From Escherichia coli (GTDB taxonomy: Bacteria > Pseudomonadota > Gammaproteobacteria > Enterobacterales > Enterobacteriaceae): DNA of 64,000 nucleotides. Each line of letters starts with the position of its first letter. Position 1 is the first letter of the stretch. Location of the stretch: the NCBI RefSeq assembly GCF_003334305.1, contig NZ_QOWS01000004.1. One strand, 5' to 3'. The position numbers were made by a program, and so were the translations under genes. The notes under the pieces were generated by a model, which searched no databases, had not been told where the DNA came from, and saw nothing but the letters and a program-made list of their open reading frames with translations. This document shows positions 1-10,963 of this stretch, one piece after another.

Positions 1-550
1 GCAGGCGCAGATCCAGCGTGCCATAACGCTGCCACAGCAGCCAGCAAGCAATCGCCAGCAGCAGAGTGCCAAGACGCCCCAGCGCAAACCACAGTTTGCC
101 CTCTTTGCTGTTGCTGGTAAGGAACACCGCACACAAGGCCATGACTTCAGCCATTACCACGAACATGCCGAGGTTGCTGGCGATGACGGCGCAGACGGCG
201 GCAGCCATCAACATATTGATCTGCAAGCCGTTGCACTTCACCTGCGCGTGGCGATGCCAGTCAATGTTGTAGAGGCTGACAAACAGACCGCACAGACCGA
301 GCGTAATCAGCCAAATCGCGTTAAGCGGAGAGATTTGCACATCGTAGCTTACCAGCGACAGCGCACCGCTCACGCCAACCGCGCCAGTCAGTACAGTGAA
401 GCCCGCGGCTGCCGTATACAGACTACCAACCGCGCCGCCAATTCCGGCTATCCAGCCACTTAGCGTCTTTTGAAAAGAAAAGAGAAATGCCAGAACAGCG
501 GCGGCGACAAACCATGCCACGCCGCTATTGATCAGGGAAATTGCGCTCAT
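1..550 (-). CDS. hycC: Formate hydrogenlyase membrane subunit HycC, N-terminal part; gene continues beyond window start
   Basis: Minus-strand frame open from ATG at 550-548 to the window edge; translation begins MSAISLINSGVAWFVAAAVLAF (hydrophobic); ATGA overlap with the hycB stop. Confidence 0.85.
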   Translation of the reverse strand, partial: MSAISLINSGVAWFVAAAVLAFLFSFQKTLSGWIAGIGGAVGSLYTAAAGFTVLTGAVGVSGALSLVSYDVQISPLNAIWLITLGLCGLFVSLYNIDWHRHAQVKCNGLQINMLMAAAVCAVIASNLGMFVVMAEVMALCAVFLTSNSKEGKLWFALGRLGTLLLAIACWLLWQRYGTLDLRL

Positions 551-1158
551 TTAGCCTCTCCACTTTGAGCCTGCTGAAACAAGGTGAGATCGCCAAAGTC
601 CGTGTTAAAGGTCAGCTCACGCTTACGTTTGCTGACGCGGGCGATATCGGTGTTATCCACCAGATGCAGGGCTTTAGTCGGGCACATCCGCACGCAGGCC
701 GGACCTTGTTCATCAAAACTGCAAAGGTCACATTTGACGGCGATCGCGCGAATACCCGGCACCCAGTCAAGCAGCGTACTGATACGCGCCGGAGCAGGCG
801 GTGCCGGTGGCGCTTTCGGGGTATTGGCATTTGCAGGAATATCCAGCGGACGGCTGCCGGAAAATTCAATTGCGCCAAACGGGCAGGCGATGCCGCACAG
901 CTTGCAGCTTACGCACAGGCTTTCATTCAACTGCACGGCCCCATCAACGCGGGTGATGGCGTTAACCGGGCAGACCACCGCGCAGGGTGCATCTTCACAG
1001 TGGTGACAGAGCTGCGGCGCAGATTCTTTTTCATTTAGCATCACTCTCAGGCGCGGCATTGATTGCAGGCCGTGCTGGCGATGCGTCTCTGAACAGGCGG
1101 CCTCACAAGTGTGGCAGCCGATACAGAGCGTGGAGTCAGCAATTACAAAACGATTCAC
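547..1158 (-). CDS. hycB: Formate hydrogenlyase 4Fe-4S ferredoxin-type subunit HycB
   Basis: 203-aa ORF with repeated CxxCxxCxxxCP cluster motifs; synteny hycA-hycB-hycC. Confidence 0.93.
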   Translation of the reverse strand: MNRFVIADSTLCIGCHTCEAACSETHRQHGLQSMPRLRVMLNEKESAPQLCHHCEDAPCAVVCPVNAITRVDGAVQLNESLCVSCKLCGIACPFGAIEFSGSRPLDIPANANTPKAPPAPPAPARISTLLDWVPGIRAIAVKCDLCSFDEQGPACVRMCPTKALHLVDNTDIARVSKRKRELTFNTDFGDLTLFQQAQSGEAK

Positions 1159-1282: not shown

Positions 1283-1744
1283 TCATGCTGCCGGGCTTTG
1301 TCCCTTTACCAGTTGGCTTAAATTCACCGGCACATTGTTTTCAATGGCGGTGTATAAGCTGTCGTAAACGCCAGCGATTTTTTCGAGATAGTGTTCCAGA
1401 ACCTGTTCGCGATCGCGGATGTTGACCTTGCCATCAATCATGCCGTCAATGCTCAGTTGCGCCTGCGCAATCCGCTGTTTGTCTTCGCCATCTTTTGTTT
1501 CGACGTAATACTCGATGGTGTGGCTGTTAAAGCCATCCGCCAGGGTGACGTAAATACGAAAATGTTCAAAAAGGACGAAACAGAGTTCTTTGTCCGGCGC
1601 GCAGCTCATGGCGTGATGCAGGCGCGCTTTCGATAACGTGATCCCCTGAACCAGCGAATTGCAGTAGATGTGCCACTGGTCCTGTAGGCGACGATGCCGC
1701 TGTGCGATGTAATCGGCTTTCTCGCTTATTTCCCAAATAGTCAT
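1283..1744 (-). CDS. hycA: Formate hydrogenlyase regulatory protein HycA
   Basis: 153-aa ORF (MTIWEISEKADYIAQ...); divergent from hypA. Confidence 0.9.
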   Translation of the reverse strand: MTIWEISEKADYIAQRHRRLQDQWHIYCNSLVQGITLSKARLHHAMSCAPDKELCFVLFEHFRIYVTLADGFNSHTIEYYVETKDGEDKQRIAQAQLSIDGMIDGKVNIRDREQVLEHYLEKIAGVYDSLYTAIENNVPVNLSQLVKGQSPAA

Positions 1745-5646: not shown

Positions 5647-7725
5647 ATGTCATATACACCGATGAGTGATCTCGGACAGCAAGGGTTGTTCGACATCACT
5701 CGGACACTATTGCAGCAGCCCGATCTGGCCTCGCTGTGTGAGGCTCTTTCGCAACTGGTAAAGCGTTCTGCGCTCGCCGACAACGCGGCTATTGTGTTGT
5801 GGCAAGCGCAGACTCAACGTGCGTCTTATTACGCATCGCGTGAAAAAGACACCCCCATTAAATATGAAGACGAAACTGTTCTGGCACACGGTCCGGTACG
5901 CAGCATTTTGTCGCGCCCTGATACGCTGCATTGCAGTTACGAAGAATTTTGTGAAACCTGGCCGCAGCTGGCCGCAGGTGGGCTATACCCAAAATTTGGT
6001 CACTATTGCCTGATGCCACTGGCGGCGGAAGGGCATATTTTTGGTGGCTGTGAATTTATTCGTTATGACGATCGCCCCTGGAGCGAAAAAGAGTTCAATC
6101 GTCTGCAAACATTTACGCAGATCGTTTCTGTCGTCACCGAACAAATCCAGAGCCGCGTCGTTAACAATGTCGACTATGAGTTGTTATGCCGGGAACGCGA
6201 TAACTTCCGCATCCTGGTCGCCATCACCAACGCGGTGCTTTCCCGCCTGGATATGGACGAACTGGTCAGCGAAGTCGCCAAAGAAATCCATTACTATTTC
6301 GACATTGACGATATCAGTATCGTCTTACGCAGCCACCGTAAAAACAAACTCAACATCTACTCCACTCACTATCTTGATAAACAGCATCCCGCCCACGAAC
6401 AGAGCGAAGTCGATGAAGCCGGAACCCTCACCGAACGCGTGTTCAAAAGTAAAGAGATGCTGCTGATCAATCTCCACGAGCGGGACGATTTAGCCCCCTA
6501 TGAACGCATGTTGTTCGACACCTGGGGCAACCAGATTCAAACCTTGTGCCTGTTACCGCTGATGTCTGGCGACACCATGCTGGGCGTGCTGAAACTGGCG
6601 CAATGCGAAGAGAAAGTGTTTACCACTACCAATCTGAATTTACTGCGCCAGATTGCCGAACGTGTGGCAATCGCTGTCGATAACGCCCTCGCCTATCAGG
6701 AAATCCATCGTCTGAAAGAACGGCTGGTTGATGAAAACCTCGCCCTGACCGAGCAGCTCAACAATGTTGATAGTGAATTTGGCGAGATTATTGGCCGCAG
6801 CGAAGCCATGTACAGCGTGCTTAAACAAGTTGAAATGGTGGCGCAAAGTGACAGTACCGTGCTGATCCTCGGTGAAACTGGCACGGGTAAAGAGCTGATT
6901 GCCCGTGCGATCCATAATCTCAGTGGGCGTAATAATCGCCGCATGGTCAAAATGAACTGCGCGGCGATGCCTGCCGGATTGCTGGAAAGCGATCTGTTTG
7001 GTCATGAGCGTGGGGCTTTTACCGGTGCCAGCGCCCAGCGCATTGGTCGTTTTGAACTGGCGGATAAAAGCTCCCTGTTCCTCGACGAAGTGGGCGATAT
7101 GCCACTGGAGTTACAGCCGAAGTTGCTGCGTGTATTGCAGGAACAGGAGTTTGAACGTCTCGGCAGCAACAAAATCATTCAGACGGACGTGCGTCTAATC
7201 GCCGCGACTAACCGCGATCTGAAAAAAATGGTCGCCGACCGTGAGTTCCGTAGCGATCTCTATTACCGCCTGAACGTATTCCCGATTCACCTGCCGCCAC
7301 TACGCGAGCGTCCGGAAGATATTCCGCTGCTGGCGAAAGCCTTTACCTTCAAAATTGCCCGTCGTCTGGGGCGCAATATCGACAGCATTCCTGCCGAGAC
7401 GCTGCGCACCTTGAGCAACATGGAGTGGCCGGGTAACGTACGCGAACTGGAAAACGTCATTGAGCGCGCGGTATTGCTAACACGCGGTAACGTGCTGCAG
7501 CTGTCATTGCCAGATATTGTTTTACCGGAACCTGAAACGCCGCCTGCCGCAACGGTTGTCGCCCAGGAGGGCGAAGATGAATATCAGTTGATTGTTCGCG
7601 TGCTGAAAGAAACCAACGGCGTGGTTGCCGGGCCTAAAGGCGCTGCGCAACGTCTGGGGCTGAAACGCACGACCCTGCTGTCACGGATGAAGCGGCTGGG
7701 AATTGATAAATCGGCATTGATTTAA
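5647..7725 (+). CDS. fhlA: Formate hydrogenlyase transcriptional activator FhlA (sigma-54 enhancer-binding protein)
   Basis: Start chosen at MSYTPMSDLGQQ (692 aa) inside the 704-aa track ORF; GETGTGKE AAA+ motif and C-terminal HTH. Confidence 0.9.
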   Translation: MSYTPMSDLGQQGLFDITRTLLQQPDLASLCEALSQLVKRSALADNAAIVLWQAQTQRASYYASREKDTPIKYEDETVLAHGPVRSILSRPDTLHCSYEEFCETWPQLAAGGLYPKFGHYCLMPLAAEGHIFGGCEFIRYDDRPWSEKEFNRLQTFTQIVSVVTEQIQSRVVNNVDYELLCRERDNFRILVAITNAVLSRLDMDELVSEVAKEIHYYFDIDDISIVLRSHRKNKLNIYSTHYLDKQHPAHEQSEVDEAGTLTERVFKSKEMLLINLHERDDLAPYERMLFDTWGNQIQTLCLLPLMSGDTMLGVLKLAQCEEKVFTTTNLNLLRQIAERVAIAVDNALAYQEIHRLKERLVDENLALTEQLNNVDSEFGEIIGRSEAMYSVLKQVEMVAQSDSTVLILGETGTGKELIARAIHNLSGRNNRRMVKMNCAAMPAGLLESDLFGHERGAFTGASAQRIGRFELADKSSLFLDEVGDMPLELQPKLLRVLQEQEFERLGSNKIIQTDVRLIAATNRDLKKMVADREFRSDLYYRLNVFPIHLPPLRERPEDIPLLAKAFTFKIARRLGRNIDSIPAETLRTLSNMEWPGNVRELENVIERAVLLTRGNVLQLSLPDIVLPEPETPPAATVVAQEGEDEYQLIVRVLKETNGVVAGPKGAAQRLGLKRTTLLSRMKRLGIDKSALI

Positions 7726-7734
7726 CTGCAAATT

Positions 7735-7758
7735 GCCGGACAGATCTGCCTGTCCGGC
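7735..7758. terminator. Hairpin between convergent fhlA and ygbA (candidate bidirectional terminator)
   Basis: gccggacag-atctgc-ctgtccggc, 9-bp perfect stem. Confidence 0.5.
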
Positions 7759-7761
7759 ATA

Positions 7762-8115
7762 CTATTCACGAGGTTTTTTCGGACGATATTTTTCCGGCAG
7801 TTCTGGCACCGGACGCTTGTCATCGATGAGATGACGCACGGTTAAGATCGGATGACGCCACAGCATTCTCGGCCCGGCCCAACGCATAATCTGTTTCATC
7901 TCTTCACGCTTTGCAGGCTGGTAACAGTGCACCGGACACTGCTTACAGGCTGGTTTCTCTTCGCCGAACACACATTTATCCAGCCGCTTTTGCGCGTAAA
8001 CAAACAACGCCTCGTAATGCTCCGGCTCCGCTGACGCCTGCGGGCATTTCGCTTGATAAAGATCGATCATTTTTTTAATCGTCAGTTTTTCACGAGAGAT
8101 ACGCTTGCCGGACAT
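7762..8115 (-). CDS. ygbA: Cys-rich small protein YgbA (NsrR-regulon member)
   Basis: 117-aa ORF matching YgbA. Confidence 0.85.
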   Translation of the reverse strand: MSGKRISREKLTIKKMIDLYQAKCPQASAEPEHYEALFVYAQKRLDKCVFGEEKPACKQCPVHCYQPAKREEMKQIMRWAGPRMLWRHPILTVRHLIDDKRPVPELPEKYRPKKPRE

Positions 8116-8132
8116 GCTGCCTCCACCTCATT

Positions 8133-8155
8133 AAGATGTATTTATATTACATCTT
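8133..8155. promoter_or_regulatory. Candidate NsrR operator upstream of ygbA
   Basis: aagatgtatttatattacatctt, an 11-1-11 imperfect inverted repeat 18-40 bp upstream of the ygbA ATG. Confidence 0.5.
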
Positions 8156-8401
8156 AATCTTAAAGGGCACTATGACTCTAAAGAAGAAAGGTTCGCCAAC
8201 CGACGCAATTTTGCGTACTTGCTTCATAAGCATCACGCAAAAGCTGCAAAACAGCATCTTTCCCGGAACCAGCATCAAGAACTCACCGTTCGCTTCTTCC
8301 CCTGAAATGATTAACTCCGGTATCATGTGCGCCTTATGTGATTACAACGAAAATAAAAACCATCACACCCCATTTAATATCAGGGAACCGGACATAACCC
8401 C

Positions 8402-10963
8402 ATGAGTGCAATAGAAAATTTCGACGCCCATACGCCCATGATGCAGCAGTATCTCAGGCTGAAAGCCCAGCATCCCGAGATCCTGCTGTTTTACCGGATG
8501 GGTGATTTTTATGAACTGTTTTATGACGACGCAAAACGCGCGTCGCAACTGCTGGATATTTCACTGACCAAACGCGGTGCTTCGGCGGGAGAGCCGATCC
8601 CGATGGCGGGGATTCCCTACCATGCGGTGGAAAACTATCTCGCCAAACTGGTGAATCAGGGAGAGTCCGTTGCCATCTGCGAACAAATTGGCGATCCGGC
8701 GACCAGCAAAGGTCCGGTTGAGCGCAAAGTTGTGCGTATCGTTACGCCAGGCACCATCAGCGATGAAGCCCTGTTACAGGAGCGTCAGGACAACCTGCTG
8801 GCGGCTATCTGGCAGGACAGCAAAGGTTTCGGCTACGCGACGCTGGATATCAGCTCCGGGCGTTTTCGCCTGAGCGAACCGGCCGACCGCGAAACGATGG
8901 CGGCAGAGCTGCAACGCACTAATCCGGCGGAACTGCTGTATGCAGAAGATTTCGCCGAGATGTCGCTGATTGAAGGCCGTCGCGGCCTGCGCCGTCGCCC
9001 GCTGTGGGAGTTTGAAATCGACACCGCGCGCCAGCAGTTGAATCTGCAATTTGGCACCCGCGATCTGGTCGGTTTTGGCGTCGAGAACGCGCCGCGCGGA
9101 CTTTGTGCTGCCGGTTGTCTGTTGCAGTATGCGAAAGATACCCAACGCACGACCCTGCCGCATATTCGTTCTATCACCATGGAACGTGAGCAGGACAGCA
9201 TCATTATGGATGCCGCGACACGTCGTAACCTGGAAATTACTCAGAACCTGGCGGGCGGTGCGGAAAATACGCTGGCTTCTGTGCTCGACTGCACCGTCAC
9301 GCCGATGGGTAGTCGTATGCTGAAACGCTGGCTGCATATGCCAGTGCGCGATACCCGCGTGTTGCTTGAGCGCCAGCAAACTATTGGCGCATTGCAGGAT
9401 TTCACCGCCGAGTTGCAGCCGGTACTGCGTCAGGTCGGCGACCTGGAACGTATTCTGGCACGTCTGGCTTTACGAACTGCTCGCCCACGCGATCTGGCCC
9501 GTATGCGCCACGCTTTCCAGCAACTGCCGGAGCTGCGTGCGCAGTTAGAAACTGTCGATAGTGCACCGGTACAGGCGCTACGTGAGAAGATGGGCGAGTT
9601 TGCCGAGCTGCGCGATCTGCTGGAGCGAGCAATCATCGACACACCGCCGGTGCTGGTACGCGACGGTGGTGTTATCGCATCGGGCTATAACGAAGAGCTG
9701 GATGAGTGGCGCGCGCTGGCTGACGGCGCGACCGATTATCTGGAGCGTCTGGAAGTCCGCGAGCGTGAACGTACCGGCCTGGACACGCTGAAAGTTGGCT
9801 TTAATGCGGTGCACGGCTACTACATTCAAATCAGCCGTGGGCAAAGCCATCTGGCACCCATCAACTACATGCGTCGCCAGACGCTGAAAAACGCCGAGCG
9901 CTACATCATTCCAGAGCTAAAAGAGTACGAAGATAAAGTTCTCACCTCAAAAGGCAAAGCACTGGCACTGGAAAAACAGCTTTATGAAGAGCTGTTCGAC
10001 CTGCTGTTGCCGCATCTGGAAGCGTTGCAACAGAGCGCGAGCGCGCTGGCGGAACTCGACGTGCTGGTTAACCTGGCGGAACGGGCCTATACCCTGAACT
10101 ACACCTGCCCGACCTTCATTGATAAACCGGGCATTCGCATTACCGAAGGTCGCCATCCGGTAGTTGAACAAGTACTGAATGAGCCATTTATCGCTAACCC
10201 GCTGAATCTGTCGCCGCAGCGCCGTATGTTGATTATTACCGGCCCGAACATGGGCGGTAAAAGTACCTATATGCGCCAGACCGCACTGATTGCGCTGATG
10301 GCCTACATCGGCAGCTATGTACCGGCACAAAAAGTCGAGATTGGACCTATCGATCGCATCTTTACCCGCGTAGGCGCGGCAGATGACCTGGCTTCCGGGC
10401 GCTCAACCTTTATGGTGGAGATGACTGAAACCGCCAATATTTTACATAACGCCACCGAATACAGTCTGGTGTTAATGGATGAGATCGGGCGTGGAACGTC
10501 CACCTACGATGGTCTGTCGCTGGCGTGGGCGTGCGCAGAAAATCTGGCGAATAAGATTAAGGCATTGACGCTGTTTGCCACCCACTATTTCGAGCTGACC
10601 CAGCTACCGGAGAAAATGGAAGGCGTCGCCAACGTACATCTCGATGCGCTGGAGCACGGCGACACTATCGCCTTTATGCACAGCGTGCAGGACGGCGCGG
10701 CGAGCAAAAGCTACGGTCTGGCGGTTGCTGCTCTGGCGGGCGTACCGAAAGAGGTTATTAAGCGCGCACGGCAAAAACTGCGTGAGCTGGAAAGCATTTC
10801 GCCGAACGCCGCCGCTACGCAAGTGGATGGTACGCAAATGTCTTTGCTGTCCGTACCAGAAGAAACTTCGCCTGCGGTCGAGGCACTGGAAAACCTGGAC
10901 CCGGATTCACTGACTCCGCGTCAGGCGCTGGAGTGGATTTATCGCTTGAAGAGTCTGGTGTAA
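8402..10963 (+). CDS. mutS: DNA mismatch repair protein MutS
   Basis: 853 aa with Walker [10 protein letters not shown]. Confidence 0.97.

Follow-up and report, generated by a model that had tools for sequence, protein, structure and literature searches.

A very probable NsrR operator at the predicted ygbA promoter in the ygbA-mutS intergenic region of Escherichia coli

The inverted repeat at positions 8133-8155 of the Escherichia coli DNA analysed here (64 kb in total, referred to as the window) is, with high confidence, the operator by which the NsrR repressor controls ygbA, with nitric oxide (NO) relieving the repression. The assignment is based on the match to the NsrR motif, on the rarity of such a match and on its strict conservation in position and orientation with respect to ygbA, which were all determined in this study. 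NsrR binding at the ygbA promoter and NsrR- and NO-dependent expression are taken from the literature.

The ygbA-mutS locus

Bases 7700-8500 of the window show 100% identity to strain M8 and 99.1% identity to K-12 MG1655. Positions 8116-8401 are exactly the intergenic region between the divergent genes ygbA and mutS, for which the following features are given:

7762-8115, minus strand: ygbA coding sequence, 117 amino acids (open reading frame list, RefSeq annotation)
8120-8124, minus strand: ygbA Shine-Dalgarno sequence GGAGG, 4 nt before the ATG (read from the sequence)
8402-10963, plus strand: mutS coding sequence (open reading frame list, RefSeq annotation)

The ygbA product is a member of the Pfam family YgbA_NO (PF11756, E = 1.4e-40, residues 4-106). 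RefSeq also annotates fhlA in the window, the record spelling the label flhA. The neighbours of ygbA vary within E. coli, as seen in strains Esc15, LR-58-2 and p4A (region corresponding to about 7726-8115 of the window). In some E. coli strains a TOBE-domain gene is located directly downstream of ygbA, where the window has fhlA, and in E. coli p4A both ygbA and the operator are absent and fhlA is truncated.

PGAP/RefSeq places an open reading frame for a 'hypothetical protein' at 8147-8326 on the minus strand, in antisense orientation to the mutS promoter region; its stop codon falls within the NsrR operator. It comprises 59 amino acids in the window strain, 44 in K-12 and 43-59 in other Escherichia, its C-terminus is variable, most of the changes are non-synonymous, and no alignment is obtained outside Escherichia. 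Since length and C-terminus differ among Escherichia, this reading frame is probably an annotation artefact and not a gene.

Inverted repeat and match to the NsrR motif

Two overlapping symmetric elements were located in front of ygbA:

8133-8155, no strand assigned: very probable NsrR operator, 23 bp, 11-1-11 layout, AAGATGTATTT-A-TATTACATCTT (consensus, weight matrix, conservation and published target)
8130-8158, no strand assigned: perfect inverted repeat with the arms ATTAAGATGTA (8130-8140) and TACATCTTAAT (8148-8158) and a 7-nt spacer (repeat search, 100% complementary)

The full 23-bp string at 8133-8155 is AAGATGTATTTATATTACATCTT, which reads AAGATGTAATATAAATACATCTT on the ygbA sense strand, and 17 nt separate the operator from the ygbA ATG downstream of it. 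An 11-1-11 inverted repeat had been reported here in the preliminary description of this DNA. The repeat is real, but taken strictly as 11-1-11 its arms are complementary at only 9/11 positions; the perfect repeat is shifted outward and, in the window allele, adds 3 bp to the operator on either side. For perfect inverted repeats of this kind (arms of 11 nt or more, spacer no longer than 10 nt), the expected number in 64 kb is 0.23.

When the degenerate NsrR consensus AAGATGYATTTNAAATRCATCTT was searched with up to 3 mismatches, 8133-8155 was the sole match in the 64 kb, with 2 mismatches; in shuffled sequence, 0.01 matches per 64 kb are expected. An NsrR weight matrix was trained on the 11-1-11 sites in Table 4 of Mehta et al. 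2015 (PMC5320621), using the 25 distinct ones other than ygbA. With this matrix the operator scores 22.3 bits, the highest value in the window (training sites span 12.6-31.7); of 200 simulations of 64 kb under a Markov model, only one attained this score. The site fits the enterobacterial definition of an 11-1-11 NsrR operator, the palindrome AAGATGCATTT-N-AAATGCATCTT.

The second-best matrix match in the window was obtained at 1194-1216 (16.6 bits, AACATGCCGATGAAATGTCATTT), between hycA (1283-1744, minus strand) and hycB (547-1158, minus strand). Its reverse complement is the 'hycB' site published for CFT073, where ChIP-seq was positive. Since this site is contained in the training set of the matrix, the match is recognition and no independent evidence. 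An imperfect 34-bp palindrome, TTTTGCGTacTTGCTTCATAAGCAtcACGCAAAA, is found at 8209-8242 in the middle of the intergenic region. We do not count it among the conserved elements, since B2-type E. coli have an altered left arm without compensation and the region is unalignable outside Escherichia.

The operators of ytfE, hmp and hcp in E. coli show the same 23-bp layout, with the outer AAG...CTT, the inner ATG/CAT and a promoter-proximal location, and the ygbA site (22.3 bits) ranges between those of hmp (20.8) and hcp (26.6) in matrix score. In contrast to these three, the upstream half-site of ygbA (sense strand) is off consensus at positions 7 and 11 (GTAATAT versus GCATTTN).

It is extremely improbable that a different regulator acts on this palindrome, be it IscR or some other Rrf2 protein, or a NorR-type protein at a GT-N7-AC enhancer site. 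The GATGT...ACATC of the repeat does resemble GATGT-N7-ACATC, the NorR2 motif at hcp of Vibrio (PMC1274295). However, the spacing is N9 here instead of N7, and on this ground a NorR-type site was rejected. Inspection by eye also revealed no adjacent sigma-54 -24/-12 element, GGCAC at 8166-8170 having no TTGC 5 nt downstream, and published genetics place ygbA under NsrR.

Conservation across enterobacteria

The footprint sample consisted of relatives of YgbA from one genome per species, comprising 80 loci, mostly of Enterobacteriaceae, from more than 20 genera (Escherichia, Citrobacter, Salmonella, Klebsiella, Raoultella, Enterobacter, Kluyvera, Lelliottia, Leclercia, Pluralibacter, Phytobacter, Kosakonia, Trabulsiella and others). 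Within the 350 nt upstream of ygbA, the best matrix match always has the same orientation and a distance of 12-25 nt, counted from the start of the protein match, which is the ATG in 78/80. Even when the whole locus of about 3.3 kb is considered, the best NsrR-like site precedes the ygbA ATG by 11-26 nt in 79 of the 80 loci. The median score of the ygbA site is 19.9 bits, whereas the best match elsewhere in the locus has a median of 6.6 and reaches 13.8 at most. In an alignment of 29 sequences from multiple genera, the sole conserved upstream blocks are the operator and the ribosome-binding region, with a purine-rich block at the ygbA Shine-Dalgarno sequence. Judged by this sequence comparison, the site has the fixed position and orientation of a phylogenetically footprinted NsrR operator. 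The reading of the repeat as an NsrR operator, as proposed beforehand, is thus supported by the motif match, by its recurrence at the same position in orthologous loci and by its being a published target.

A divergent mutS is present within the 1.5 kb fetched upstream in 25 of the 80 loci, and the other 55 keep the operator together with ygbA. Because the operator is retained at ygbA also where mutS is no neighbour, the comparison assigns it to ygbA and not to mutS. In Enterobacter, Lelliottia, Leclercia and related genera with a divergent mutS, the gap between both genes amounts to about 510-530 bp, versus about 285 bp. The mutS-proximal part of this longer gap is unalignable to Escherichia, and the ygbA operator is kept.

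The arms of the repeat can also be read as a hairpin of DNA or RNA, formed in the leader of a ygbA transcript with a more upstream start or as an antisense terminator, with no protein site involved. The perfect 11-nt inverted repeat exists, and the window allele folds to an 11-bp stem with an MFE of -18.1 kcal/mol and z = -3.7 (8175-8116, minus strand). Across 67 distinct operators, however, complementarity is limited to 5-9 of the 11 symmetric pairs, and covariation exceeds the shuffled expectation for none of them. Such independent variation of the arms, without covariation, is expected of protein half-sites and not of a hairpin, and led us to reject the latter. Moreover, pair 4/20 is broken (G:A or A:A) and uncompensated in common E. 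coli alleles, the stem is not followed by a T run, conservation falls on the positions of the NsrR half-site and the predicted -10 hexamer, and an Rfam search of positions 7000-9000 at E <= 1 was empty. A hairpin function is therefore given hardly any credence here, and NsrR half-sites remain the preferred reading.

Predicted ygbA promoter inside the operator

The centre of the operator most likely contains the -10 region of ygbA, as indicated by its conservation, and the promoter is predicted as follows:

8144-8149, minus strand: predicted ygbA -10 hexamer TAATAT (operator sense positions 7-12; TAnnnT conservation)
8137, minus strand: predicted ygbA transcription start, A at sense position 19, 7 nt downstream of the predicted -10 (A in 61/65 operators)
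8167-8172, minus strand: weak candidate -35 TAGTGC, 2/6 consensus matches, 17-bp spacer (low confidence)

On the ygbA sense strand, T7, A8 and T12 are found in all 65 distinct orthologous operators and A11 in 63 of them. The hexamer at sense positions 7-12 occurs as TATTAT, TAAAAT, TAGAAT, TAATAT and similar variants, all of the form TAnnnT. Of 50 orientations of NsrR sites at other genes, just 3 have TAnnnT at these positions. The NsrR motif sets no requirement at its central position 12, yet this is an invariant T in the ygbA operators, which suggests a second constraint beyond the NsrR motif. The departures of ygbA from the ytfE, hmp and hcp operators create exactly this TAnnnT hexamer, with the central position 12 fixed as T, so that operator and -10 are apparently built from the same bases.

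A transcription start at 8137 would result in a 22-nt leader, with the operator spanning about -18 to +5. In orthologues from Enterobacter, CTGAAA (4/6) is located at the same -35 spacing. A simple sigma-70 consensus scan of 7700-8500 delivered a promoter-like site for neither ygbA nor mutS, and for this reason the assignment of the ygbA promoter rests on conservation. A measured ygbA start site was found neither in the literature searched nor in the ROSE supplement, and the overlap of -10 and operator is inferred. The preliminary description had expected the repeat to overlap the ygbA promoter, and this agrees with the conserved TAnnnT, the probable -10, in the centre of an operator 17 nt from the ATG.

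The -10-like hexamer in the centre could likewise suggest that the repeat is just the AT-rich core promoter of ygbA with symmetry by chance, NsrR control being exerted elsewhere or indirectly; the missing ygbA peak in ChIP-seq of CFT073 points in the same direction. We consider this to be very unlikely. A1, A2, G6, C18, T22 and T23 are invariant or nearly so in the 65 operators and match the NsrR motif, but have no role in sigma-70 recognition. A second NsrR-like site is not found in the loci, where the best score elsewhere has the low median reported above, and K-12, which carries the same allele as the window, is ChIP-chip positive according to PMC5320621.

The mutS side of the intergenic region

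The upstream end of mutS is defined by published data:

8328-8401, plus strand: mutS 5' leader, 74 nt (start at -74 from the literature, PMC5580658)

Chen & Gottesman 2017 described the 74-nt mutS leader and, at -50 to -42, the Hfq-binding (AAN)3 motif ARN1 (PMC5580658). This motif, AATAAAAAC, is present at 8352-8360, as predicted by the published coordinates. The preliminary description had also placed the mutS promoter in this region, and the published start at -74, corresponding to about 8328, indeed falls inside 8116-8401. Since this start is about 170 bp away from the operator edge, it is unlikely that NsrR at 8133-8155 occludes or controls the divergent mutS promoter.

Hexamers at -10 and -35 that would be consistent with the published mutS start were looked for, and none was convincing: TATCAT at 8321-8326 is too near the start for a -10, and TGaTTAACT at 8308-8316 would have to lie about 5 nt closer to it. 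The mutS-proximal 110 bp or so (8291-8401), comprising promoter and leader, are near-invariant across Escherichia species. The ygbA-proximal half (8116-8290) is a mosaic of divergent alleles.

Operator alleles within E. coli

At least five alleles of the operator exist in E. coli, differing at plus-strand positions 4, 7 and 20 only; the nine sequences compared are identical at positions 8-19. Counts refer to genomes with the exact 42-mer, out of 5426:

Allele A-T-T (positions 4/7/20): window and K-12; 2111/5426 genomes
Allele G-C-A (positions 4/7/20): B2 strains, CFT073 type; 1088/5426 genomes
Allele A-C-A (positions 4/7/20): O157:H7 and LR-58-2; 681/5426 genomes
Allele G-T-A (positions 4/7/20): O111:H8 and A30
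Allele A-C-T (positions 4/7/20): OkiPb01682

The matrix scores of all five range from 20.0 to 22.5 bits, and the allele of the window and K-12 is the most symmetric. The CFT073 site, AAGGTGCATTTATATTACAACTT, is orthologous, has the same position and is identical to the window in the central 12 bp. It departs from the window at positions 4, 7 and 20 of the operator, with 7/11 symmetric pairs compared to 9/11 in the window. The B2/CFT073 allele breaks pair 4/20 and is also the one for which no NsrR ChIP-seq peak was obtained (PMC5320621), whereas K-12 with the window-type allele is cited there as ChIP-chip positive. It is conceivable, although rather doubtful, that the alleles set differing NsrR occupancy and thereby differing NO thresholds or basal ygbA levels between phylogroups. 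If this were true, the 'false negative' of CFT073 would be real natural variation in the regulon.

Published evidence on ygbA and NsrR

The regulation of ygbA by NsrR has been known for some time. A personal communication in Rodionov et al. 2005 states that NsrR (YjeB) of E. coli represses hmp, ytfE and ygbA via a common inverted repeat (PMC1274295). Regulation of ygbA by NsrR is further attributed to Bodenmiller & Spiro 2006 in PMC5320621 and PMC2884951, and binding of NsrR to the K-12 ygbA promoter in ChIP-chip to Partridge 2009 in PMC5320621. In Salmonella, an nsrR mutant showed a 31.8-fold increase of ygbA mRNA (PMC2884951). Mehta et al. included the CFT073 ygbA site among 27 predicted 11-1-11 sites in their Table 4, obtained no peak there by ChIP-seq and interpreted this as a false negative (PMC5320621).

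The nitric oxide-responsive repression suggested for ygbA in the preliminary description is in line with this literature, including the K-12 ChIP-chip result cited in PMC5320621 and the Salmonella nsrR mutant. What does not stand is the novelty implied by the word candidate: the interpretation is supported, but the ygbA operator is already known, ygbA having been recognised as part of the nitrosative-stress regulon of NsrR from 2005-2006 onwards, with its site contained in published tables.

Proposed mechanism

The gene nsrR itself belongs to the core genes of E. coli and is absent from the 64-kb window. The NsrR protein is identical in CFT073 and K-12 (PMC5320621). As a dimeric Rrf2-family protein with a [4Fe-4S] cluster, NsrR would occupy one 11-bp half-site per monomer. 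A dimer on the operator would cover the predicted -10 of ygbA (8149-8144, minus strand) and the predicted start (about 8137), and RNA polymerase would be kept off the ygbA promoter. Upon exposure to nitric oxide, nitrosylation of the cluster would release NsrR from the DNA and allow transcription of ygbA. Because the operator sits over the predicted -10 and start, steric occlusion of the promoter is the simplest mode of repression, and it depends on the predicted positions of both elements.

Loss of DNA binding in response to NO is described for NsrR of Streptomyces (PMC11500311, PMC5411485). The NsrR-hmpA operators of Streptomyces coelicolor represent the same family with an NO-triggered release from an inverted repeat, and complexes of [4Fe-4S] NsrR with DNA have been structurally characterised there (PMC5411485, PMC9338935, PMC11500311); organism and operator sequence are different from those considered here. 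A structure of E. coli NsrR or of the ygbA operator was not found in the literature searched.

Conclusions

As a discovery the present result has little weight, and it shows that a real operator is recognisable from raw sequence. Three small points are added to the known regulon: the operator belongs to ygbA and not to mutS, it occurs as several alleles in E. coli populations, and throughout the Enterobacteriaceae it is conserved jointly with the probable -10 hexamer, both being apparently made up of common bases.
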